IMG/VR virus record: IMGVR_UViG_2617270939_000004
Span: 1 to 10,894 of that record
Source: a virus
Lineage: Duplodnaviria > Heunggongvirae > Uroviricota > Caudoviricetes
DNA length: 10,894 nt
Strand: one strand, 5' to 3'
Shown: positions 1-10,894 of the stretch, piece after piece
How positions within the stretch are numbered: the first letter of the stretch is position 1
Layout: every line of letters starts with the position of its first letter
The notes under the pieces: model-generated
What the model was told of the DNA's origin: nothing
Databases searched by the model: none
Seen by the model: only the letters and a program-made list of their open reading frames with translations
Made by a program: the position numbers and the translations under genes

Positions 1-405
1 GAGGCCTTCCCCGGGTTAATCCGGCAAACCCACCGGAAAATCAGGTCAGCCGCCGCCGATGGCGCTTACGATACCCGGCTATGTCACGATGAACTGCGGC
101 GTAAGAAAATCAGCGCGCTTATCCCTCCCCGAAAAGGTGCGGGTTACTGGCCCGGTGAATATGCAGACCGTAACCGTGCAGTGGCTAATCAGCGAATGAC
201 CGGGAGTAATGCGCGGTGGAAATGGACAACAGATTACAACCGTCGCTCGATAGCGGAAACGGCGATGTACCGGGTAAAACAGCTGTTCGGGGGTTCACTG
301 ACGCTGCGTGACTACGATGGTCAGGTTGCAGAGGCTATGGCCCTGGTACGAGCGCTGAACAAAATGACGAAAGCAGGTATGCCTGAAAGCGTGAGTATTG
401 CCTGA
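1..405 (+). CDS. IS903-like DDE transposase, C-terminal portion (5' end outside the window)
   Basis: Frame 1 is open from base 1 to the TGA at 403-405, so the listed 181..405 ORF is only the tail of a longer protein. The translation ends ...LVRALNKMTKAGMPESVSIA, typical of an IS903-group transposase C-terminus, and the IS terminal repeat follows about 40 bp downstream. Confidence 0.8.
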   Translation, partial: EAFPGLIRQTHRKIRSAAADGAYDTRLCHDELRRKKISALIPPRKGAGYWPGEYADRNRAVANQRMTGSNARWKWTTDYNRRSIAETAMYRVKQLFGGSLTLRDYDGQVAEAMALVRALNKMTKAGMPESVSIA

Positions 406-461
406 AAACACAACCCGCTACGGGGGAGACTTACCCGAAATCTGATTTATTCAACAAAGCC
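1..461 (+). mobile_element. Right end of an IS903-group (IS5 family) insertion sequence; partial, continues beyond the window start
   Basis: Positions 444-461 read GATTTATTCAACAAAGCC, the reverse complement of the IS903/IS102-type terminal inverted repeat GGCTTTGTTGAATAAATC (recalled from memory). The transposase C-terminus lies immediately upstream. Confidence 0.8.
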
Positions 462-559
462 GTTACGATGCTGCAAAAAATGAGATATCACCGCCAAATG
501 GCACTTCTTATACTGCATCAGAAATTTCTATCAAACGTGTTCCTGATGGGCTGTGTCGA

Positions 560-802
560 GTGAGTAATTCATTGGTTAAGACTATCGAATATAATGGAAA
601 TGCAGGCGGTGTAATGAAGTTCACCTATCGTGAATTTGCAAACGATATGGCTCGTGCAGCATTTACAACAGATTTTTCTGTAGATTCTAAGGGAAGTGAT
701 GTTATCGCTTACAAAGGTGCCAAGTTCAAAGTGAACAAGGCTGATAACTCGTCTATTTCTTATACAATTATTTCTGGCTTTGACAAGGCTGTCACGTTCT
801 AG
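560..802 (+). CDS. Hypothetical small protein, possibly the 3' remnant of a gene interrupted by the IS
   Basis: The reading frame is open from 446 to 802, crossing the IS boundary at 461/462. No convincing ribosome-binding site precedes GTG 560 or the first in-frame ATG at 614. The product is Ser/Thr/Asn/Lys-rich and ends in ...GFDKAVTF. I recognise no family. AT-rich like the downstream operon. Confidence 0.3.
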   Translation: MSNSLVKTIEYNGNAGGVMKFTYREFANDMARAAFTTDFSVDSKGSDVIAYKGAKFKVNKADNSSISYTIISGFDKAVTF

Positions 803-906
803 GTTTCACGCTTACTGAGTATGTTACGATTTTGCACATTCTGCATAAACGCGCATGTCTATGCTGCATGAGATCGCATGATCGTTTGAGGATCTTTTGT
901 GTTAAG

Positions 907-930
907 GCCCGCCAGTTCTGGCGGGCTTTT
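907..930 (+). terminator. Rho-independent terminator
   Basis: GCCCGCCAG (907-915) pairs with CTGGCGGGC (918-926) in a GC-rich hairpin, followed by TTTT (927-930). It separates the small ORF from the ATPase operon. Confidence 0.55.
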
Positions 931-1112
931 GCGTAGATCATGCAGGTGCATGAAAACCACTACATAAAGCGGGCAGGCGTGGCGGGGATACGAGCGCGCG
1001 CTGTGCTGTGTGGTATAGGCCTTAATTTAGTATGATTCAATAGTGTCGGGAGCTTTGCGCTGATCAGTCCTAAGTTATATGATAAGAAAAATGCATAAAA
1101 AAGGTTCGGTTC

Positions 1113-2087
1113 ATGGGGTTAGGATTAAAAGACGCTATTGTGCATACCGCTGCGTTTCATCAAAAGGAAACTAATGAATTGCAATTGCCAAACAATCATT
1201 GGCATCCTGGTTTTATCACTGTCTTAGCAGCTTACGTGAATCATCACAAAATTACCGAAGATAACTGTGTTTTGTCATGCCCGGGCTATATGCGAGCTAT
1301 CAATTTACATGGTGCTTTATGGGGAGAGGATCAGTATCAACAGGAACGTGTAAATGTTGGAAGAAATTACAGTTTGGTTACAGCATTAACCAATGTTGAA
1401 GCTGTTGACGTTGCCACTGGTAGTATTAACAGTTGTGTAAGGCAGTTAACATTCCCTGATCGTGATCCGAGAGATTGTCCCAAGGGACTTACAGATCTAA
1501 CCCATGTTATAGGTGAGCTTCACGATAACGTTTGGTCGCATGGAAAATCAACGGGTTTTTCTTTTGCACAACGTTCGGCTGTACCCCACACTCAAAAAAA
1601 AGAGCACTATTTAGAATTTTCTTTGGCGGACTGTGGGTTAGGATTTCTCCGAGAATTGCGGCGAGCTGGTATACCCGGAATTGAGACTCACCAGGATGCG
1701 ATCGCATGGTGTATTCAAGAGGGACATTCATCTAAGCATGCTGATTTGCAGGATGATTGGGCACAGCAGCTTCCCCAGGACTTTATTGGGGGTAGTGTGT
1801 TTGGCCACGGGGTTTCGGTCAAAGAAAAAGATAATAATCATCAAGGGCTTGGGTTGTATCACTTGATGAAATTGATAAAAACATATAATGGGGAATTGCA
1901 ACTGGCTTCAGGAAATGTATGCTTAGAAGCAATAGGTGATGAAGTGAGCTATACTGAATTACGTACTGAATGGCCGGGTGTAGCAATTTCTTGCCGTTTT
2001 AAGATTCATGAACTGGCAGTCGATAAAGATAGCGAAGAAAATGACCCTCAGCTTATGGAAATAATGCGGGCGTTAGGAGGAGAGTAA
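1113..2087 (+). CDS. GHKL (Bergerat-fold) ATPase, anti-sigma-factor/serine-kinase-like, with an uncharacterised N-terminal region of about 125 aa
   Basis: The translation carries an N-box E135-LHD-N139-VWS-H143, a G1 box D173-C-G-L-G177 and a G2 box G245-L-G-L in the canonical order for GHKL ATPases. No histidine-kinase dimerisation/phosphoacceptor region is evident. A-rich stretch with AAGG lies 9-12 nt upstream of ATG 1113. AT-rich, unlike the flanking phage genes. Confidence 0.7.
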   Translation: MGLGLKDAIVHTAAFHQKETNELQLPNNHWHPGFITVLAAYVNHHKITEDNCVLSCPGYMRAINLHGALWGEDQYQQERVNVGRNYSLVTALTNVEAVDVATGSINSCVRQLTFPDRDPRDCPKGLTDLTHVIGELHDNVWSHGKSTGFSFAQRSAVPHTQKKEHYLEFSLADCGLGFLRELRRAGIPGIETHQDAIAWCIQEGHSSKHADLQDDWAQQLPQDFIGGSVFGHGVSVKEKDNNHQGLGLYHLMKLIKTYNGELQLASGNVCLEAIGDEVSYTELRTEWPGVAISCRFKIHELAVDKDSEENDPQLMEIMRALGGE

Positions 2088-2425
2088 TGAACAAAATCGC
2101 ATACAAGTTACCCGAGGGTGACCTGGCTTCGCGCAATCAGGCTATCCCCCAACGACACAAGATTGAAGGGTTCATTAAAGAAGGGTATACCGTAGATTTA
2201 GATTTGAGCGGTGTTTATTCAATTTCAGAATCATACTCTGATGAAATCTTTGGTGTTTTGGTAGTGAAATTCGGTGTAACCAAAGTTTTGAGTCAAGTTA
2301 AGGTTCGCAATGCACCCCCTTCAATTTTAAAAAGTATTGCAAAAGTGATCCAACGCCGTAGTAATGAAGTAGCATCAAAAAAGGTTCATTCCGTTGGATT
2401 TGATGGTTTATACGCCGTTTGTTAA
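2087..2425 (+). CDS. Small STAS-like protein (anti-sigma-factor-antagonist-like; DUF4325-type by recollection)
   Basis: Its ATG overlaps the upstream TAA as TAATG at 2085-2089, and a strong AGGAGG (2075-2080) sits 6 nt upstream, indicating translational coupling. The motif TVDLDLSGVYSISESYSDEIFGV (residues 35-57) resembles the D-L-S-G-V...S-S-G core of SpoIIAA/RsbV-type STAS domains, with candidate phosphorylatable serines at 45-51. Confidence 0.65.
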   Translation: MNKIAYKLPEGDLASRNQAIPQRHKIEGFIKEGYTVDLDLSGVYSISESYSDEIFGVLVVKFGVTKVLSQVKVRNAPPSILKSIAKVIQRRSNEVASKKVHSVGFDGLYAVC

Positions 2426-2442
2426 TATATGGTTAGTTAGAT

Positions 2443-2468
2443 AAAAGGCGCTGAGATTAGCGCCTTTT
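2443..2468. terminator. Bidirectional rho-independent terminator between the cargo operon and portal gene Q
   Basis: A perfect 10-bp stem, AAAAGGCGCT (2443-2452) with AGCGCCTTTT (2459-2468), encloses a 6-nt loop. It is flanked by an A-run on one side and a T-run on the other, so it can terminate on either strand. Confidence 0.6.
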
Positions 2469-2471
2469 CTT

Positions 2472-3509
2472 TTATTCCTGAACACCTAAAACATAGTCAT
2501 CAAAACGTATTACTTCTGCACCCACCCATTCGTTTAGTTCATGTAGTCGCTTCTGTAGTGGCATCAATTCATTGCGAACAAATACAAGACTAGCCTTCTC
2601 CACATCCCCAAAACCCCCAACATTATTTGGCATAATCCCCATCATCTGTGGCGGAACGCGATGTGCTGCCATCATGTCATCGCGGCTGACATTTTTGATA
2701 TTCAGAAACTCATCCTTCGCCGCAACTTCTGACAAAGGGATGATCTGAAGGCCGTCCTTTTTGCCGTTAGGCGAGTACATAAACAGGTTGCGGAAGTTGC
2801 CTGGACCTTTGGCGCTTTTCATCGCGTTGCGGAGATTGTTCACATCCTCCTGATTCTGCGCGGCGTCGGTCATGTACATGATGAAGCCTGCATGGCTGCC
2901 GTTGATGTAATACTTACGGCGGAACAGCGTGGCGGACTCATTGAGCAGGGCTGACGGAATGGCAGAAAGATAGCCGGGCAGGCCGTAGATCTCCTGGTTA
3001 ATGTCCGGTTCCATCAGATGAAAGATGCTGCCTTTCGTGAACTGATACGGCTGTGTTGTCATACCGTATTGCACAAACCAGTAGGTTTCTAGGTCTAACC
3101 CGCGTCGGGTGTATTTTGCCAGGGCCGGTTCAAGGGCGATAACTTCACCGAAGCGGTTCGTGCGTTTCTCCAGGTAGGCGTTACCAAATACCAGATAGTC
3201 CTGCACAAAACGTGAAAAAGCCTGCTGGCTGAGCAGCGGGTGAGGGATGTAGGTACTGGTCAGAATGTTGCACTTTACTGCAATCGGGGAACTGTGATGC
3301 ACAGCAGCGCGGAAGGTGCGCGCCAGTCCGTCAAAGCTGACAGGAGGCTCATACCAGCGATCTGTCTGTACGCATTCCACATAGTCCAGCAGTTCGCGGC
3401 GGTCAAGTACTGGAATGGGATCACCGAAGCTGAATGCTTCGGCTGTAGTCTGGCTTTTAAGCTGGCTCTGTTTCGTCGCCGCAGCGCGGTTCTTCTTACT
3501 CTTTCCCAT
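2472..3509 (-). CDS. Q: P2-family portal protein gpQ
   Basis: The 345-aa translation closely follows P2 gpQ as I recall it (...FGDPIPVLDRRELLDYVECVQTDRWYEPPVSFDGLARTFRAA...). I place the start at ATG 3507-3509, preceded by GGAG, rather than the TTG at 3510-3512 used by the ORF track. This ATG overlaps the stop of P by one base. Confidence 0.93.
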   Translation of the reverse strand: MGKSKKNRAAATKQSQLKSQTTAEAFSFGDPIPVLDRRELLDYVECVQTDRWYEPPVSFDGLARTFRAAVHHSSPIAVKCNILTSTYIPHPLLSQQAFSRFVQDYLVFGNAYLEKRTNRFGEVIALEPALAKYTRRGLDLETYWFVQYGMTTQPYQFTKGSIFHLMEPDINQEIYGLPGYLSAIPSALLNESATLFRRKYYINGSHAGFIMYMTDAAQNQEDVNNLRNAMKSAKGPGNFRNLFMYSPNGKKDGLQIIPLSEVAAKDEFLNIKNVSRDDMMAAHRVPPQMMGIMPNNVGGFGDVEKASLVFVRNELMPLQKRLHELNEWVGAEVIRFDDYVLGVQE

Positions 3510-5275
3510 CAAAAAATCTCCACAATATTGCTGGTATTGGCGGACTCGCCCTGCAGCGGTTCGTTAAAGAGTGCGTGCATTGTTGCCCAAGCCAGATCGG
3601 CATGGCTGGCTTCTTCGCTGCGGCTGGCTTCATAGGTCGGGCGGTTGCCGCTGGCGGTGGTGGCGCGACGGATTGCCATGAATGACTGCGCAATGTCGGT
3701 GTGTCCGGCGTCAAATTCTAGGCGGCGGTGACTGATAATGTCGTAGGCCTTGAGTACCAGGGCGTTTTTAACGTTGGGGTTGTAGACAAACTCCCGGACG
3801 GCAGGAAAGAATGCTTTCACGTTCTCGTAAACCCCGTGGCCGACGCCAGTTGAGTCGATGCCGATGTATGTCACGTTGTACTGTTCGGTCAGTTTTTTGA
3901 TGGCGTCAGCCTGGGCGCGGAAGTCCACCCCGCGCCACTGGTGACGCTCAAGAATGCGGAACTTACCGCCCGGCACGGCTGGCGGTGCCACCACTACGCA
4001 TCCGGCGCTGTCGCCGTTTTGCGTACCTTTTGCCGGGTCATAACCGATCCACACTTCGCGCCAGCCAAAGGGGCGCAGAGCCAGTGCATGAAAGTCGGTC
4101 CAGACTTCCCAGCTGTCCACCATGCACGCCTGCAGCTCGCTGAGCGGGAACACGGACGCGAGATCGTCCACGAACTCGCACATCAGCAGGTTCTGGTATT
4201 CGTCCGGGCTGTACTCCATGCGCAACTGGTCAAGGTCGAACAGGTTACAGCCGCCGCGCACCGCATCTTCCACGGTGACTATCTGGCGGTATTGCCCGTC
4301 TGCGCACAGCAGGCCGGGGGCCAGATTGCTGTGGGACAGGTCGATGTCCACCTTATCGGCTTTGTTGCGCCCACGGTTGAACAGCGCACCAGACCAGAAC
4401 GGATAAGCACTGTGTGTCAGGCTGGATGGCGTGGAAAAATAGGTTTGTCGCCATTTTTTGTGAATAGCCATACCGGAAGCCACTTTGCGCAGCTCCTGGA
4501 ATTTCGGTATCCAGAAATATTCATCCAGATACAGGTTGCCGTGATAACTCTGGGCAGTGCGGGCATTGGTGCCGAGGAAGTAAAGCGTGGCCCCGTTAGG
4601 AAGCACCATCGGATCGCCTTTCAGCTCCACCTCGACTTCTTTGGCGAAGTCGATGATGTATTGCTTAAAGACGTGAGCCTGTGCCTTACTGGCAGAAAGG
4701 AAAATCTGGTTACGTCCGGTAAGCAGGGCGTCAATCAGGGCTTCACGGGCAAAGTAAAAGGTCGCGCCGATCTGGCGTGACTTCAGCAGATTACGGATGC
4801 GGTTGGTTTTTCCAGCTTCCCACCAGTGGCGCTGGTAGTTGAACATGGAGGAATGGAAGATTTCTTCCAGCTTCTCAATCTGTTCATCGGTGAAAACATT
4901 CTTTTCCGGCTGACGGCGCGGCCCTTTGTTGCGGTTGGCGACGTTAGGGTTTAAGTCGGCTTCGTTGCCGCCATTGTTAAACTTGCCGATCCGCGCGTGG
5001 CGCTCCGACTGGCGTGCCAGCAGGTCAATTTCTTTGAAATCTTTCCCTTCTTTGTGCTCCTTCATAATGAGCTGGCAATAGCGTGCGGCGGTGGTGAGCT
5101 GCATCTGATCCAGCGGCCCATAGTCACCCCACTTGTCGCGTTTTTTCCAGCTGTGAACGGTTGCAACTTTCTCGCCCAGCATTTCAGCAATGCGGGCTAC
5201 GCGGTATCCCTGAAAGTACAGCAGCATGGCCTGCCGACGGGGATCGAGATCTGCGGGTGTCAGTGTGGTGTTCAT
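3509..5275 (-). CDS. P: P2-family terminase large (ATPase) subunit gpP
   Basis: 588 aa, the size and sequence character of P2 gpP. It lies immediately upstream of Q on the same strand with an overlapping stop/start, matching the P2 Q-P arrangement. Confidence 0.93.
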   Translation of the reverse strand: MNTTLTPADLDPRRQAMLLYFQGYRVARIAEMLGEKVATVHSWKKRDKWGDYGPLDQMQLTTAARYCQLIMKEHKEGKDFKEIDLLARQSERHARIGKFNNGGNEADLNPNVANRNKGPRRQPEKNVFTDEQIEKLEEIFHSSMFNYQRHWWEAGKTNRIRNLLKSRQIGATFYFAREALIDALLTGRNQIFLSASKAQAHVFKQYIIDFAKEVEVELKGDPMVLPNGATLYFLGTNARTAQSYHGNLYLDEYFWIPKFQELRKVASGMAIHKKWRQTYFSTPSSLTHSAYPFWSGALFNRGRNKADKVDIDLSHSNLAPGLLCADGQYRQIVTVEDAVRGGCNLFDLDQLRMEYSPDEYQNLLMCEFVDDLASVFPLSELQACMVDSWEVWTDFHALALRPFGWREVWIGYDPAKGTQNGDSAGCVVVAPPAVPGGKFRILERHQWRGVDFRAQADAIKKLTEQYNVTYIGIDSTGVGHGVYENVKAFFPAVREFVYNPNVKNALVLKAYDIISHRRLEFDAGHTDIAQSFMAIRRATTASGNRPTYEASRSEEASHADLAWATMHALFNEPLQGESANTSNIVEIF

Positions 5276-5321
5276 GGCACAAACCTACAACCTTGAATGA
5301 AGGCTTTCCCCGCCTGCGGTT

Positions 5322-5339
5322 TGTGTGGTTGTCGGTACA
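5322..5339. promoter_or_regulatory. Candidate Ogr/Delta activator site (TGT-N12-ACA) of a P2-type late promoter
   Basis: TGT (5322-5324), 12 nt, then ACA (5337-5339), in the 142-bp divergent P-O intergenic region. It is centred about 88 bp upstream of the O start codon, compatible with the -55 position described for P2 late promoters. It is the only exact TGT-N12-ACA in this intergenic region. Confidence 0.35.
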
Positions 5340-5417
5340 AATACCGCGCATTGTTTCACTGCCACCATCACCGCAACCATAAGGCTCCAGTAAGTTTTTT
5401 CTAACGGAGCACAGCTC

Positions 5418-6251
5418 ATGACAGTGAAAGCAAAGCGTTTTCGCATCGGGGTGGAAGGTGCCACCACCGACGGACGCGAAATCCAGCGTGAATGGCTGGA
5501 ACAGATGGCAGCCAGCTACAACCCGACGATGTACACCGCGCTGATTAACCTTGAGCACATCAAGTCTTATCTGCCGGACAGCACCTTTAACCGCTACGGC
5601 AAGGTGACGGCGCTGTTTGCTGAAGAAATCACGGAAGGTCCGCTGGCAGGCAAGATGGCGCTGTATGCCGACGTTGAGCCAACGGAATCACTGGTGGAAC
5701 TGGTGAAAAAAGGCCAGAAATTATTCACCTCTATGGAAGTCAGCCCGAAGTTTGCTGATACGGGCAAAGCCTACCTGGTCGGCCTGGCTGCCACTGATGA
5801 CCCTGCCAGTCTGGGCACTGAAATGCTGACATTCAGCGCCAGTGCAGCCCATAACCCGCTGGCAAACCGCAAGCAGAATCCCGCCAATCTTTTTACCGCT
5901 GCAGAGGAAACGGTGATCGAACTGGAAGAAATCCAGGATGACAAACCGTCCCTGTTTGCCCGTGTCACGGCGCTGTTCACCAAAAAAGAGCAGTCCGATG
6001 ACGCCCGGTTCTCTGATGTGCATAAGGCCGTGGAACTGGTCGCCACTGAGCAGCAGAACCTGAGTGCGCGCACCGAAAAATCCCTGTCTGAGCAGGAAGA
6101 ACGCCTGTCTGAGCTGGAGACTGCCCTGCAGGCACAGCAGACCGCCTTTAACGAACTGGTGGACAAGCTGAGCCAAGAAGACAGCCGCCAGGACTACCGC
6201 CAGCGTGCAACAGGCGGTAACGCCCCCGCTGACACTCTGACCAATTGCTGA
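5418..6251 (+). CDS. O: P2-family capsid scaffolding protein gpO
   Basis: 277 aa, diverging from P at the position P2 O occupies. The sequence resembles P2 gpO from memory, including a C-terminus ending ...TNC. Confidence 0.9.
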   Translation: MTVKAKRFRIGVEGATTDGREIQREWLEQMAASYNPTMYTALINLEHIKSYLPDSTFNRYGKVTALFAEEITEGPLAGKMALYADVEPTESLVELVKKGQKLFTSMEVSPKFADTGKAYLVGLAATDDPASLGTEMLTFSASAAHNPLANRKQNPANLFTAAEETVIELEEIQDDKPSLFARVTALFTKKEQSDDARFSDVHKAVELVATEQQNLSARTEKSLSEQEERLSELETALQAQQTAFNELVDKLSQEDSRQDYRQRATGGNAPADTLTNC

Positions 6252-6267
6252 TGGAGCACAAAACCTG

Positions 6268-6441
6268 ATGAAGAAGAACACCCGCCGCCGTTCAGTTATC
6301 GACAACCCGAAACGTGACCGGATTGAAAACTTTGAATCCGTTAACGAAGCCTATGTGGTTGAGGACTACCGCTGCGCCGCACTGGTGGAAAACATCCAGA
6401 TTGGTGATTTCAGCGCCGCCGCAGCCGAAACCGGAGCGTAA
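6268..6441 (+). pseudogene. N: Remnant of major capsid gene N (57 codons, where P2 N is about 357)
   Basis: This short ORF (MKKNTRRRSVIDNPKRDRIENFESVNEAYVVEDYRCAALVENIQIGDFSAAAAETGA) occupies the N position between O and M. It resembles the extreme C-terminus of P2 gpN as I recall it (...RRVIEENPKLDRVENYESMNIDYVVEDY...VGDFS...). The stop is 3 nt before the M start, as at a normal N-M junction. Confidence 0.55.
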
Positions 6442-6444
6442 TCC

Positions 6445-7095
6445 ATGAGCCTGAGTCCCGCACGGCAGCATCGCCTGCGCGTTCAGGCTGAACAGGCCGC
6501 CCGCGAGGGCGGCAGTGTTCGCCACGCATCGGGCTATGACCTGATGCTGCTGCAACTGGCGGAAGACCGCCGCCGTCTCAAGGGCGTTCAGTCCACGGTC
6601 AAAAAAGCGGAAATCAAGGTGGAGCTGCTGCCGAAGTACGCCGCCTGGGCAGAGGGTGTCCTGGCTGCCGGAGGCGCTCAACAGGATGACGTGCTGATGT
6701 ACGTGATGCTGTGGCGCATTGATGCCGGAGATTATGCCGGAGCGCTGGAGATCGGGCGTCATGCCCTGCGTCATGGCTGGGTGATGCCGCTGGGTAACCG
6801 CAACGTGCAGACCGTGCTGGCAGAGGAAATGGCAGACGCCGCGCAGAGCGCAATGCTTGCCACCACCGGCTTTGATGCCGATCTGTTGCTGCAGACGCTG
6901 GAGCTGACAGACGGTCTGGATATGCCGGACCAGTCACGGGCGCGTCTGCATAAAGCGATTGGCGCGGTCCTGAGTGAAAGCAATCCGGCGTCTGCCCTTA
7001 ATCATCTCAACCATGCGTTACAGCTCGATCCCCGCTGTGGCGTGAAAAAAGACAAACAGCAGCTGGAGCGCAGACTGCGCAATGACAGCCGCTGA
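6445..7095 (+). CDS. M: P2-family terminase small (endonuclease) subunit gpM
   Basis: 216 aa. The N-terminal region (MSLSPARQHRLRVQAEQAAREGGSVRHASGYDLMLLQLAEDRRRLKGVQS...DDVLMYVMLWRIDAGDYAGALEI...) matches P2 gpM by recollection, and the gene follows N in P2 order. Confidence 0.9.
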   Translation: MSLSPARQHRLRVQAEQAAREGGSVRHASGYDLMLLQLAEDRRRLKGVQSTVKKAEIKVELLPKYAAWAEGVLAAGGAQQDDVLMYVMLWRIDAGDYAGALEIGRHALRHGWVMPLGNRNVQTVLAEEMADAAQSAMLATTGFDADLLLQTLELTDGLDMPDQSRARLHKAIGAVLSESNPASALNHLNHALQLDPRCGVKKDKQQLERRLRNDSR

Positions 7096-7190
7096 CAGAA
7101 CGTGCCCCCGCGCACGGGCGGCACGGGGTGGCGAAAGGCACTGCCACATCAAAACCCCGTCCACCGCCCTCTATTTCAGGAGAAAGCAGC

Positions 7191-7730
7191 ATGAAGTTTG
7201 TTGCGCCAGAACAGGCACCGGAACAGGCGGAAATCATCAGAAATACGCCGTTCTGGCCTGATGTGGACCTGTCGGAGTTTCGCAGTGTCATGCGCACTGA
7301 CGGCACGGTGACGCAGCCGCGTTTAAAGCAGGTTGCGCTGTCGGCAATTTCGGAGGTCAACGCAGAGCTGTATGAGTTTCGCAGACGCCAGCAGATGCTG
7401 GGGTATGCCTCGCTGGCAGAGGTTCCGGCGGAACAGCTGGACGGCAAAAGTGAGCGCATTCAGCACTATTTCAACGCGGTTTACTGCTGGGCACGCGCCA
7501 TGCTCAACGAACGTTACCAGGACTATGACACCACGGCATCCGGTGTGAAGCGGGGCGAGGAACTGGCGGAAGCCAGCGGTGATTTATGGCGTGACGCCCG
7601 CTGGGCCATCAGCCGGGTAGATGATGCGGAATGGACCATTACGACTCTGACGCATACCGTCAGCCCCGATAACGGTTTTACAACCAGTCTGGAGCTTGAA
7701 GTGAGGATTGATGATTTCGAAATGGAATGA
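7191..7730 (+). CDS. L: P2-family head completion protein gpL, with a C-terminus that may be altered by a deletion junction
   Basis: I start it at ATG 7191, which has AGGAG at 7178-7182 eight nt upstream; the ORF-track start at 7128 lacks comparable support. The product is 179 aa. The central region (...NAELYEFRRRQ...LAEVPAEQLDG...DLWRDARWAI...) is gpL-like. The last 35 residues or so do not resemble the gpL end I recall. Confidence 0.75.
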   Translation: MKFVAPEQAPEQAEIIRNTPFWPDVDLSEFRSVMRTDGTVTQPRLKQVALSAISEVNAELYEFRRRQQMLGYASLAEVPAEQLDGKSERIQHYFNAVYCWARAMLNERYQDYDTTASGVKRGEELAEASGDLWRDARWAISRVDDAEWTITTLTHTVSPDNGFTTSLELEVRIDDFEME

Positions 7731-7820
7731 TTCTTCGCAATGGAGAACTTTTAAGTTTGCAAAATGGAATAATGCGGTATCATTATTGTGAATTTAGCAA
7801 AAATGGGGAGAACTCGAAAA

Positions 7821-8039
7821 ATGATGATTTGCCCACTGTGTGGAAGTGCCGCCCATACTCGCAGCAGTTTTCAGGTATCTTCATTGACCAAAGAGCGTTA
7901 CAACCAGTGCCAGAACATTAACTGCAGCCATACTTTTGTTACCCATGAAACTTTTGTTCGTTCGATTGCAACGCCAAAAGAGTCAAATCCGGTTCAGCCG
8001 CATCCAATGAAATCAGGACAGGTGGCGCTCTCTCTTTGA
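7821..8039 (+). CDS. ogr: Ogr/Delta-family zinc-finger late-gene transcription activator
   Basis: 72 aa starting MMICPLCGSAAHTRSS..., with an exact C4-x2-C7-x22-C30-x4-C35 zinc-finger spacing, as in P2 Ogr. GGGGAG (7806-7811) lies upstream of ATG 7821. The ORF-track GTG start at 7788 is probably too far upstream. Confidence 0.88.
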   Translation: MMICPLCGSAAHTRSSFQVSSLTKERYNQCQNINCSHTFVTHETFVRSIATPKESNPVQPHPMKSGQVALSL

Positions 8040-8125
8040 CGCTGCCGCCATTTTGTCGCCATCGTTAAAAAACAGTGTTTCTAACATCATGATTTTAAAC
8101 AGCTTAAATTTCAGGCAACAAAAAA

Positions 8126-8162
8126 CCCATCAACCTTGAACCGAAATGGCGGGGTTGATGGG
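8126..8162 (-). terminator. Rho-independent terminator downstream of ybjL
   Basis: CCCATCAACC (8126-8135) pairs with GGTTGATGGG (8153-8162) in a 10-bp stem around a 17-nt loop. On the minus strand it is followed by a run of six T (complement of 8120-8125). Confidence 0.5.
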
Positions 8163-8274
8163 CTCCACAAAATGGGGACATCAAAGAAAAGCAGTGGCAC
8201 TAATTAAGACTGATGCCCTGCGGAAAAGTTCTGCGGTTGTGCAAAAAAATTTCATTTTCAGGGCAACTTCAGTT

Positions 8275-9960
8275 TTATCCTAATCCTGGCCATACCATGA
8301 CGATGATTGTCCCTGCCAGCGTCAGCAGGACGTTGGCGATTGCGTAGGTGCCCGCATAGCCCAGCGCAGGGATGTTACTGCGAGCTGTATCACTGATGAT
8401 CTCCATTGCCGGCGCGCAGGTGCGTGCGCCCATCATTGCGCCGAACAACAGTGCGCGGTTCATTCGCAATACATAAGCACCGAACAAGAAACAGATAACC
8501 ACGGGCACAAGACTGACAATTAATCCGGCAATCAACATCTGACCGCCAATCGCGCCCAGGCCGTTATTAATACCGCTACCGGCGCTCAGACCAACGCCTG
8601 CCATAAACACCATCAAGCCGAACTCTTTCACCATGCTTAATGCACCTTGCGGAATGTAACCGAAGGTCGGGTGGTTAGCACGCATAAAGCCCAGCATAAT
8701 TCCGGCGAATAACAACCCGGCAGCGTTCCCCATGCCGAAACTGAATGTGCTGAACTGGAAGGTGATCATCCCGATCATCAGCCCAATAACAAAGAAGGCG
8801 CAAAATGCCAGCAGGTCAGTGACCTGGCTGTGAATCGAGATAAAGCCGATGCGATCGGCGATGGTTTTTACGCGACGGGCATCACCGCTGACTTGTAAAA
8901 CGTCACCTTTGTTAAGCACGACGTTGTCATCTATCGGCATCTCAATCTGGCTACGAATGACGCGGTTAAGGAAGCAACCGTGATCGGTCAACTTCAGTTG
9001 TGCGAGACGTTTACCTACAGCGTTATGGTTTTTAACGACCACTTCTTCAGTGACGATACGCATGTCGAGAAGGTCACGATCGAAAACTTCTTTACCGTTA
9101 CGGAAGCTGGGATCGAGTCGGGCATGGGCGTCGGGATAGCCTACCAACGCTATTTCATCGCCCATTTGTAGCACGGCATCACCGTCTGGATTTGCCAGAA
9201 TCCCGTTACGTCGAATACGTTCAATGTAGCAGCCGGTTTGTCGATAAATACCCAGTTCACGCAGATTTTTGCCGTCGGTCCAGGCCACCAGCTCCGGGCC
9301 GACGCGATAGGCGCGGATCACCGGTAAATAAACCTTACGGTTGGCATCAGTGTCCAGGCCACGTTCGCGGGCGATTTGCTGGGCGCTGGTCTGTAAGTCC
9401 TGATGCTGCAATTTCGGCAAGTAACGCGCACCAACAATCAAACTCACCAGACCGATTAAATAGGTTAAGGCATACCCGAGGCTCAGATTATCCAGTGCCA
9501 GTGAGAGCTGCCTGCTTTCCATGCCGGAATGACGCAGTGTATCGCCAGCACCGACCAGAACCGGTGTCGACGTCATAGAGCCTGCTAACATACCGGCCGT
9601 CAGGCCAATATCCCAGCCAAACAGCTTACCTAACCCTAAGGCGATCACCAGCGCACTGCCAACCATCACCAGTGCTAACATTAGGTAATTTTTCCCATCG
9701 CGAAAAAAAATGGAAAAAAAGTTCGGTCCGGCTTCGACCCCGACGCAGAAAATAAACAGCATAAAGCCAAGATTAAGCGCGTCGGTGTTAATGCTGAAAT
9801 GTTGTTGGCCTAATAACAGTGATACGACCAAAACGCCAATGGAATTACCCAGTTGGATCGAACCAAGTCGTAACTTTCCGAGACATAGCCCAAGCGCGAG
9901 GACCACAAATAATAACAGAATGTAATTCCCATTTAACAATTCGGCGACGTTTATATTCAC
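8275..9960 (-). CDS. ybjL: Putative transport protein YbjL (AAE-family inner-membrane transporter)
   Basis: The 561-aa translation ([39 protein letters not shown]...VMVWPGLG) matches E. coli YbjL from memory. It is multi-spanning and hydrophobic, with a central soluble region. Confidence 0.93.
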
Positions 9961-10229
9961 GGAGGCTAACTTCTTGTTTACTAGTAAGCTGTTGAAAGAA
10001 ATGGTAATTTACGATAATGTTTTTTACCAGAATTCAGGGCGCAGATTCATTCAGCGCACCTAAACGATAGTAAAGTAACAATATATTTTACTAGTGTAAT
10101 CACATTAGGTATCAACGGCTATATGAATTGCGTTGGCCTATATTAGCATGGAATGCGAAGCGGCTTTATCTTACTGAACGCCACACTGGCGAAAAATGTG
10201 TTCGATAGACGCAGTGTCAGGAGGAACGA

Positions 10230-10607
10230 GTGAAACATAAACAACGTTGGGCGGGGGCAATCTGCTGTTTTGTCCTCTTCATTGTGGTGTGCCTTTTTCT
10301 GGCGACGCACATGAAAGGCGCTTTTCGGGCTGCCGGGCATCCTGAAATCGGCTTGCTGTTTTTCATTCTTCCTGGAGCAGTTGCCAGTTTCTTTTCACAG
10401 CGTAGAGAAGTCCTGAAACCTCTATTTGGCGCAATGCTGGCGGCACCCTGTTCAATGCTTATTATGCGGCTGTTTTTTTCACCGACCCGCTCATTCTGGC
10501 AAGAGCTGGCATGGTTACTAAGCGCGGTGTTCTGGTGTGCGCTGGGGGCACTGTGTTTCTTATTTATCAGTAGTTTGTTTAAACCACAGCACAGAAAAAA
10601 TCAGTAA
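10230..10607 (+). CDS. ybjM: Inner membrane protein YbjM
   Basis: 125-aa hydrophobic protein with a GTG start preceded by CAGGAGG. Its position between ybjL and grxA and its divergent orientation match the E. coli ybjL-ybjM-grxA arrangement. Confidence 0.88.
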   Translation: MKHKQRWAGAICCFVLFIVVCLFLATHMKGAFRAAGHPEIGLLFFILPGAVASFFSQRREVLKPLFGAMLAAPCSMLIMRLFFSPTRSFWQELAWLLSAVFWCALGALCFLFISSLFKPQHRKNQ

Positions 10608-10627
10608 AGCCCTCAACGCGAGGGCTT
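10607..10627. terminator. Shared hairpin terminator between convergent ybjM and grxA
   Basis: AAGCCCTC (10607-10614) pairs with GAGGGCTT (10620-10627) around a 5-nt loop, placed between the two convergent stop codons. Confidence 0.5.
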
Positions 10628-10636
10628 GTCAGACGA

Positions 10637-10894
10637 TCAGGCGTCCAGATTTTCTTTCACCCATGCAGCAAAATCGGTATAGCCGCCGATATGTTGCTGA
10701 TCGACAAAAATCTGCGGCACGGTTTCTACGGGTTTACCTGCCTTTTGTTGTAGATCTTCTTTAGTGATCCCTTCCGCACGAATATCTACATACTGATACT
10801 GAAAATCATCGCGTTCATTGCTCAATTTCTCAGCCAGATCTTTTGCACGCACACAGTAAGGGCAACCCGAACGACCAAAAATAACGGTTTGCAT
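10637..10894 (-). CDS. grxA: Glutaredoxin 1
   Basis: The 85-aa translation MQTVIFGRSGCPYCVRAKDLAEKL...AAWVKENLDA carries the CPYC active site and matches E. coli GrxA. The start codon sits at the very end of the window. Confidence 0.95.
   Translation of the reverse strand: MQTVIFGRSGCPYCVRAKDLAEKLSNERDDFQYQYVDIRAEGITKEDLQQKAGKPVETVPQIFVDQQHIGGYTDFAAWVKENLDA

Follow-up and report, generated by a model that had tools for sequence, protein, structure and literature searches.

A GHKL kinase-like protein and its DUF4325 STAS partner, carried by P2-like prophages, probably form a phage-triggered phosphorylation switch

What can a kinase and its presumed substrate do for the phage that carries them, when no gene for an output is visible beside them? 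The question is raised by two adjacent genes, here called open reading frame (ORF) 1 and ORF2, in a stretch of DNA from a virus of the Caudoviricetes (IMG/VR record IMGVR_UViG_2617270939_000004, positions 1 to 10,894). The whole stretch of 10,894 nucleotides is referred to below as the window, and the genes lie in the P2-like prophage that it contains. An original prediction, made from the sequence alone, took them for an undescribed module in which a GHKL ATPase/kinase-like protein is coupled to a STAS-like protein as a partner-switching pair. The existence of a switch formed by ORF1 and ORF2 is well supported by their obligatory co-inheritance, their occasional fusion, their autonomy from other genes, and their carriage by temperate phages and integrase-flanked islands. 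By analogy with characterised pairs of this kind, it is probably a phosphorylation switch that is triggered by phage. The trigger, acceptor residue, output and anti-phage role proposed for it below are those that we infer.

ORF1 (324 residues) consists of an N-terminal domain (residues ~1–120) and a SpoIIAB/VapK-like GHKL domain (~125–300) with a lid insertion of ~40 residues (205–244). The N, G1 and G2 boxes that had been read in it are present in the Bergerat arrangement, and E135 and N139 of the N-box, D173-x-G175-x-G177 of G1 and G245-x-G247 of G2 are invariant in 49 homologs with identities down to 40%. An AlphaFold2 model built on the alignment of these 49 homologs (predicted local distance difference test, pLDDT, 84.3; predicted template modelling score, pTM, 0.81) has the Bergerat fold. 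The best match among solved structures is SpoIIAB, followed by RsbW, the RsbW domain of Rv1364c, and UsfX, and no DHp domain with a phosphoacceptor histidine is present in ORF1, both as expected of the anti-sigma-factor serine kinase type to which it had been assigned. Pfam gives no helix-turn-helix (HTH) hit in ORF1. The model shows ORF1 as a GHKL-fold protein with a predicted intact ATP/Mg2+ site, its SpoIIAB-type kinase domain standing behind a conserved domain of ~120 residues. The family is large: a protein search returned 295 homologs, every one annotated as 'hypothetical', ORF1 matches phrog_3364 with an expectation value (E) of 1.9e-66, and an exhaustive profile search found 170 related clusters (50% identity) at E<=1e-30 and 264 at E<=1e-10. 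Its architecture is uniform, because the listed members have 280–400 residues, apart from shorter and evidently partial sequences.

ORF2 (112 residues) has a sole Pfam hit, to DUF4325 ('STAS-like domain'; PF14213), with 36.8 bits against a cut-off of 23 (E 3.1e-9), and the same family is found in all 60 of the ORF2 homologs. Pfam profiles had been put forward as a check on both proteins; ORF2 lies above its cut-off, whereas ORF1 matches HATPase_c only marginally (E 0.09). The model of ORF2 (pLDDT 90.5) is a STAS fold that matches SLC26 STAS domains, RsbV, RsbS, RsbR and SpoIIAA. A STAS core (residues 3–74) is followed by a conserved C-terminal helix (78–101), in which L81, A85, V87, R90 and R91 are invariant, and by a disordered tail; past residue 95 the protein varies in length and sequence. 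Pfam detects neither a winged helix-turn-helix (wHTH) nor any other DNA-binding domain in its 112 residues.

Within the core lies the motif S45-I-S47-E-S49-Y-S-D52-E53-I-F55-G56. All 34 sequences compared, which span the family, have S47, S49, D52 and E53, and 33 of them keep S45. Helix 2 begins at residue 48, with the invariant S47 and S49 at its N-terminus. The phospho-acceptor serine of SpoIIAA is likewise located at the N-terminus of helix 2. In CapS and VapS, two STAS proteins of recently described immune switches, the phospho-acceptor sits where S47 and S49 lie in ORF2 (PMC13373217). S47 and S49 are the invariant candidate acceptor residues. The fold and the two serines bear out the earlier assignment of ORF2 as a STAS-like protein with candidate phosphorylatable serines. 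Two further resemblances of ORF2 concern other proteins. Residues 14–96 match positions 314–397 of the 1750-position PADLOC model of DrmA, from DISARM (E 4.7e-6), which suggests that a DUF4325-like STAS domain may be embedded in some DrmA proteins. A likeness to ribosomal protein bL17, between the invariant N-terminal motif [DS]-L-A-S-R of ORF2 (window 2111–2140, residues 9–18) and 'KKGDLASRRNA', is the top PDB sequence hit of the ORF2 family profile but is not significant (E 0.18), and it was set aside as probably a matter of chance.

Are the two genes inherited as a unit? In every one of the 33 loci that could be evaluated, the STAS gene is directly downstream of the kinase gene and co-oriented with it, the gap measuring -25 to +43 nucleotides. 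These come from 34 loci in Gamma- and Betaproteobacteria, comprising 5 contigs with distant homologs and 29 species genomes that came out of a GTDB representative scan; one locus is cut by the contig end and could not be evaluated. Conserved co-occurrence had been proposed as a test of the pair, and the pairing seen here goes far beyond chance. In addition, ORF1 matches the middle and ORF2 the C-terminus of the 441-residue phrog_5816, so fused kinase-DUF4325 versions exist.

A conserved partner or effector gene was sought among the two upstream and two downstream ORFs of each of the 34 loci, 126 proteins in all. None was found among them by Pfam or by all-against-all BLAST: the most frequent Pfam family, phage integrase, occurs only three times, and BLAST links only closely related genome pairs. 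As had been noted for this locus, the window has no gene for a sigma factor, and no sigma family is among the 25 most frequent of the 121 Pfam families matched by the 126 neighbours. Nor does PP2C appear among these 25, and PIN is not among the recurrent families. In the window itself a terminator-like hairpin and the convergent portal gene follow ORF2.

Besides P2-like phages, the pair occurs in other prophages and in integrase-flanked islands. Some of the neighbours are those of mobile DNA, with integrases, resolvases, CI/Cro repressors and a P2 GPA replication protein, and others are known from defence, with PD-Lambda-1/DUF4041, type I and III restriction-modification, AriA-like ATPases and MADS components. 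The pair is also carried by Ralstonia phage RSA1 (Peduoviridae) and by Burkholderia phage vB_SBP7, the record of which has no family-level taxonomy, in both cases at the integrase/att end of the genome. Finding these pairs needed a search at the protein level; no near-identical DNA of the module is present in sequenced phages. In the RSA1 record (NC_009382.1) the STAS partner of ORF51 is unannotated, and the ORF2 hidden Markov model (HMM) finds the STAS gene (E 6e-27) at ~5885–6247 of our locus L040, roughly 38182–38544 in NC_009382.1.

Which of the known systems does the pair resemble? CapK (HTH-STAS-GHKL) and CapS (STAS-wHTH repressor) were characterised by Chambers et al., EMBO J 2026 (PMC13373217). 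Single-stranded DNA (ssDNA) switches CapK on, CapS is phosphorylated by the kinase at Ser54, and adjacent immune operons are thereby de-repressed, in a one-way switch without a phosphatase (PMC13373217). In VapKSC, VapK (STAS-GHKL, 302 residues) phosphorylates VapS (116 residues) at Ser48, which frees the PIN toxin VapC, and protection against phage Bas42 is ~100-fold (PMC13373217). VapS holds VapC by its STAS domain and C-terminal helix, and the phospho-serine is in that interface (PMC13373217).

For the comparison, the VapK and VapS sequences were transcribed from the source data of that paper. VapS belongs to the same Pfam family as ORF2 (DUF4325, E 2.7e-17). The ORF1 family profile aligns with VapK in hhalign at E 3e-6, and with a profile of 31 VapK family members at E 4.6e-6 over 179 columns (ORF1 57–300, VapK 89–285); the lid motif W-x-C-Q-x-G-N-[ST]-[ST] is common to both families. 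The ORF1 HMM scores VapK at 17.9 bits, SpoIIAB at 2.4 bits (with a provisional sequence), and the kinase of P4 system #69 at 1.6 bits, with no score for a CheA, and the VapK HMM scores members of the ORF1 family at up to 43 bits. Direct profile similarity between ORF2 and VapS is weak (hhalign E 1.4e-3, probability 17%), and there are no BLAST-level cross-hits between the ORF1/ORF2 and VapK/VapS families. In a PDB sequence search the ORF2 profile did not reach VapS (9Z7O) at E<=10, and no significant hit among solved structures came from the sequences of ORF1 and ORF2 or from the profiles of the two families.

A counterpart of the VapK STAS sensor was also looked for in the N-terminal domain of ORF1, and hhalign on the N-terminal sub-alignments gave a non-significant E of 0.57. 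That alignment places ORF1 P32 on VapK P57 and the always-aromatic ORF1 position 29 on VapK F54, a residue proposed to contact ssDNA (PMC13373217). The correspondence is suggestive but unproven.

The likeness to VapKSC extends to layout. Both kinases have ~300 residues, with an N-terminal domain before the GHKL domain; both partners are DUF4325 proteins of ~115 residues that have a C-terminal helix and, where helix 2 starts, conserved serine(s); and in both the kinase gene precedes a tightly coupled STAS gene in a mobile or defence-associated context. They differ in that the ORF1/ORF2 loci have no VapC/PIN gene or other conserved third gene, in the lid insertion of ORF1, and in the predicted position of the acceptor. 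A gapless alignment, together with the equal offsets of both proteins to Pfam DUF4325, pairs VapS Ser48 with ORF2 Glu48, between the invariant S47 and S49. The possibility that Glu48 is a conserved phosphomimetic residue was rejected, as different residues are found there across the wider family (E 21, G 5, S 3, H 2, D 2).

CapK/CapS is similar in that a GHKL kinase gene is followed immediately by that of its STAS partner, in association with immune loci. However, CapK has an N-terminal HTH and CapS a C-terminal wHTH that represses a downstream operon; ORF1 and ORF2 have neither, and the terminator and convergent gene after ORF2 leave no operon there to repress. SpoIIAB/SpoIIAA and RsbW/RsbV provide the best solved structural matches for both proteins, and have in common with them GHKL serine-kinase chemistry and a STAS acceptor at the N-terminus of helix 2. 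Yet SpoIIAB and RsbW are single-domain proteins of ~140 residues with negligible sequence similarity to ORF1, which has an extra N-terminal domain; no cognate sigma factor or PP2C phosphatase was seen with the ORF1/ORF2 loci; and the pair is phage cargo, not housekeeping. A distant analogue is P4 system #69 of Rousset et al. 2022 (Table S1B), in which HATPase_c and DUF4325, the same two domain types, are joined by a third protein with one transmembrane segment (PMC9122126); its kinase is not detectably related to ORF1 at the HMM level. A similar trio, composed of an unannotated hypothetical protein, a DUF4325 protein and a small transmembrane protein, is encoded by Fhv_0046–0048 of Francisella phage KIRK, a prophage. 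The first protein of these two trios has ~300–370 residues, and the arrangement looks like a further branch of kinase/STAS systems in which the effector would be a membrane protein. ORF1/ORF2 does not belong to VapKSC or CapKS, whose defining PIN toxin and wHTH domain it lacks, nor to the SpoIIAB/RsbW modules, since a sigma factor is missing. By analogy, it most likely works like CapK/CapS and VapK/VapS. Of the partner-switching pair first proposed, the kinase/STAS pairing and the folds stand; the classical, sigma-sequestering form of the idea fits less well than a one-way switch of the CapK/VapK type.

Is the module new? Rousset et al. 2022 (PMC9122126) list WP_004011553 and WP_032175284, the exact proteins of the window, among the P2 hotspot loci of their Table S5A, and Table S5B gives the pair as P2 system #112, 'DUF4325', with 28 occurrences and no note. 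Literature on DUF4325, STAS-like proteins, partner-switching and phage defence yielded no functional study of the pair, and NCBIfam gave no hit. In PADLOC, ORF1 matches PDC-M65A at E 0.007, with no single stretch above threshold, and ORF2 matches only the domain-sized stretch of the DrmA model noted above. 'Undescribed', as the module had been called, is therefore too strong, and the related kinase/STAS paradigm was itself characterised in 2026. The module, already catalogued, belongs to a recently described kind, of which it is a new form without an effector.

How might such a switch act? We put at roughly 45% the probability that ORF1 and ORF2 are an autonomous mobile kinase-substrate switch of the CapK/VapK type, working as a toxin-antitoxin-like abortive-infection cassette in which ORF2 restrains ORF1. 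By analogy with CapK and VapK, a signal generated by infection, probably ssDNA, would activate ORF1, and active ORF1 would phosphorylate ORF2 at Ser47 or Ser49. Phosphorylation would dissolve a complex that unphosphorylated ORF2 maintains, in which ORF2 may restrain ORF1 itself as a stoichiometric pseudo-substrate or inhibitor. The freed kinase would then act on conserved host or phage targets and block phage growth. A design in which ORF2 restrains the kinase is favoured because a toxin, a DNA-binding domain, a sigma factor and a phosphatase are all missing from the cassette. In its most minimal form, the GHKL serine kinase would itself be the effector or toxin, the STAS protein a pseudo-substrate or antitoxin that holds it in check, and a phage-derived signal the event that fires it; we regard this reading as unlikely.

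The state of the genes in the 34 loci may be relevant here. The kinase gene is split or truncated in 6 of them (L020, L033, L034, L036, L037 and L038), while all of the STAS genes are intact, which is compatible with selection against a costly or toxic kinase and gives a weak pointer in that direction. The disrupted loci include those of the isolate genomes Halomonas olivaria and Neisseria weixii; several others are metagenome assemblies.

Several points weigh against an abortive-infection switch of this kind. The 6-to-0 excess of kinase disruptions is not significant, because the kinase gene is threefold longer, and the disruptions could also stem from this larger target size and from assembly errors. 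The ssDNA trigger is an analogy only, because homology of the ORF1 N-terminal domain to the STAS sensor of VapK and CapK is not demonstrable. GHKL kinases are not known to act as toxins. The acceptor would be shifted by one residue from VapS Ser48, because the aligned position of ORF2 varies. Many of the loci have housekeeping neighbours, and neither ORF1 nor ORF2 has a significant match to a defence system in PADLOC-DB v2. Finally, system #112 is not among the tested systems in Table S2 of Rousset et al. (PMC9122126).

The main alternative to restraint of the kinase is that ORF2 holds an unlinked conserved target. ORF2 would then be an antitoxin-like inhibitor of an effector encoded elsewhere, either by the invading phage or, as a conserved protein, by the host, and phosphorylation by ORF1 would lead to its release or capture. 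The hold of VapS on VapC is a precedent (PMC13373217), and ORF2 has the same layout of STAS core and conserved C-terminal helix. The spread of the pair across Gamma- and Betaproteobacteria is hard to square with this if conservation of the target is anything less than universal; the analysis yielded no candidate for it, and the tail past residue 95 is variable. We consider this alternative improbable, though less so than the others.

The structural matches raise a second alternative, a classical anti-sigma partner switch, in which an ORF1 dimer sequesters a sigma or transcription factor of host or phage and unphosphorylated ORF2 releases it. SpoIIAB is the best match of the ORF1 model, with RsbW and UsfX close behind, ORF2 matches RsbV, SpoIIAA and RsbS, and the gene-pair architecture is typical of such modules. 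Against this, the survey found neither a sigma factor nor the PP2C phosphatase that would reset the switch among the 25 most frequent Pfam families of the neighbours, the 120-residue N-terminal domain of ORF1 is not present in SpoIIAB or RsbW, and in sequence ORF1 is nearer to VapK than to the provisional SpoIIAB sequence. This role is rather unlikely and, like that of a CapS-like repressor, fits the pair less well than the switch favoured here.

Does the pair instead serve the phage in some way other than defence, through counter-defence or by modulating host stress responses during lysogeny or induction? The functional temperate phages RSA1 and vB_SBP7 carry it in moron-like positions, and PADLOC does not recognise it as a defence system. 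However, anti-phage systems predominate in the P2 hotspot beside Q (PMC9122126), VapKSC, the nearest relative to have been characterised, acts in defence (PMC13373217), and the pair is intact in two defective remnants, the one in the window and PSJ-16, where a function of this sort would be useless. We doubt this explanation strongly. Least probable of all is transcriptional control of adjoining genes, of phage or cargo, in the manner of CapK/CapS: CapK and CapS do regulate adjacent operons upon DNA damage (PMC13373217), and the pair resides in a prophage, the biology of which DNA damage governs, but ORF2 has DUF4325 as its sole domain, the operon stops at a terminator facing a convergent gene, and the neighbours of the pair are not conserved.

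The immediate surroundings of the two genes are given in Table 1. The original description of the locus holds on each point: the genes are translationally coupled, lie between two terminator-like hairpins, and are AT-rich relative to the phage genes. Translational coupling is indicated by the Shine-Dalgarno sequence and by the overlap TAATG (2085–2089), in which the ORF1 stop codon TAA (2085–2087) shares one base with the ORF2 start codon ATG (2087–2089). The G+C content of the module is 0.40–0.47, compared with 0.51–0.64 in the phage structural genes to its right. The left hairpin may, as a terminator-like structure, insulate the module from the gene fragment on that side; it was not listed by the consensus terminator scan because its T-run and loop fall outside the scan criteria. 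The candidate promoter scores below the threshold of the consensus scan.

Table 1. Coordinates of the kinase/STAS gene pair and of the features that flank it in the window
Feature	Position	Strand	Remarks
Intrinsic-terminator-like hairpin, 5' of the module	907..930	+	GCCCGCCAG / CTGGCGGGC then TTTT; G+C-rich; read from the sequence
Possible weak sigma-70 promoter for the two-gene operon	1055..1083	+	TTGCGC, 17-nucleotide spacer, TATGAT; inferred from the sequence
ORF1, predicted GHKL kinase/ATPase	1113..2087	+	RefSeq WP_004011553.1, 'hypothetical protein'
Shine-Dalgarno sequence AGGAGG for ORF2	2075..2080	+	Within the 3' end of ORF1, 6 nucleotides ahead of the ORF2 ATG
ORF2, DUF4325 STAS-like protein	2087..2425	+	RefSeq WP_032175284.1, 'STAS-like domain-containing protein'
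Terminator-like hairpin with an 11-bp stem, flanked on either side by A/T runs	2443..2468	.	Separates the convergent ORF2 and portal gene
Portal gene Q of the P2-like prophage	2472..3512	-	Right boundary of the cargo hotspot; Pfam Phage_portal E 3.7e-17 and RefSeq annotation

The host is Escherichia coli, and the prophage is inserted between rcdA and ybjL. To the right of the module, Pfam and RefSeq identify portal Q, terminase P, scaffold O, the terminase endonuclease subunit M, head completion L, and Ogr. In intact prophages the RefSeq contexts place the pair between a DinI-like gene and Q. The same site holds other cargo in strain WWCOL-315, a 225-residue hypothetical protein followed by a 353-residue PIN-domain protein; with the adjoining portal gene, this variable content and the entry of the pair in Table S5 of Rousset et al., the predicted location in the P2 hotspot beside Q is borne out. 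The module is carried by 25 of 5,426 complete E. coli genomes, each time on the chromosome.

The prophage in the window (1–8100) is a defective remnant in which tail and lysis genes are absent and ogr (7788–8039) is retained. The C-terminal fragment of an IS5-type transposase is present at 181–405, and capsid gene N is cut down to its last ~42 codons (6268–6441). The ORF at 7128–7730 has a head-completion (GPL) match at residues 37–171 and a tail of ~30 residues beyond it, which may, going by P2 gpD, be the 3' end of gene D. ORF1 and ORF2 remain intact in this defective prophage, and the proteins are identical to those of the intact S171-1 prophage and of the PSJ-16 remnant. Judged from where the DNA match of H16 starts, 462–900 (ORF 560–802) appears to be the 3' part of a different cargo gene, that of the 225-residue hypothetical protein of WWCOL-315, and the content of the hotspot therefore looks mosaic here. 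Besides the pair, the S171-1 prophage (L001, 3729–5405) encodes a DUF4041 protein between its integrase and CI genes, and this phage may have two cargo sites; the DUF4041/T5orf172 and PD-Lambda-1 hits among neighbours of the pair are from other genomes.

What does this mean for the family? Recognition of GHKL-kinase/STAS pairs as damage-sensing switches in immunity is very recent, and in the two that have been characterised the outputs are obvious, a wHTH repressor and a PIN toxin. The ORF1/ORF2 family has kept the switch without any visible output gene, and is nonetheless conserved and mobile and found in a proven reservoir of anti-phage genes. If the kinase is itself the effector, P2-like phages would have carried across the Proteobacteria a first example of a GHKL kinase that acts as a toxin and of a CapK/VapK-class switch that lacks an effector. 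Identification of the output would reveal one of two things: an effector logic not seen before, in which the kinase is the toxin, or a cellular target of STAS proteins that is conserved. An entry of the P2-hotspot catalogue and about 170–260 related protein clusters would gain an annotation as well.

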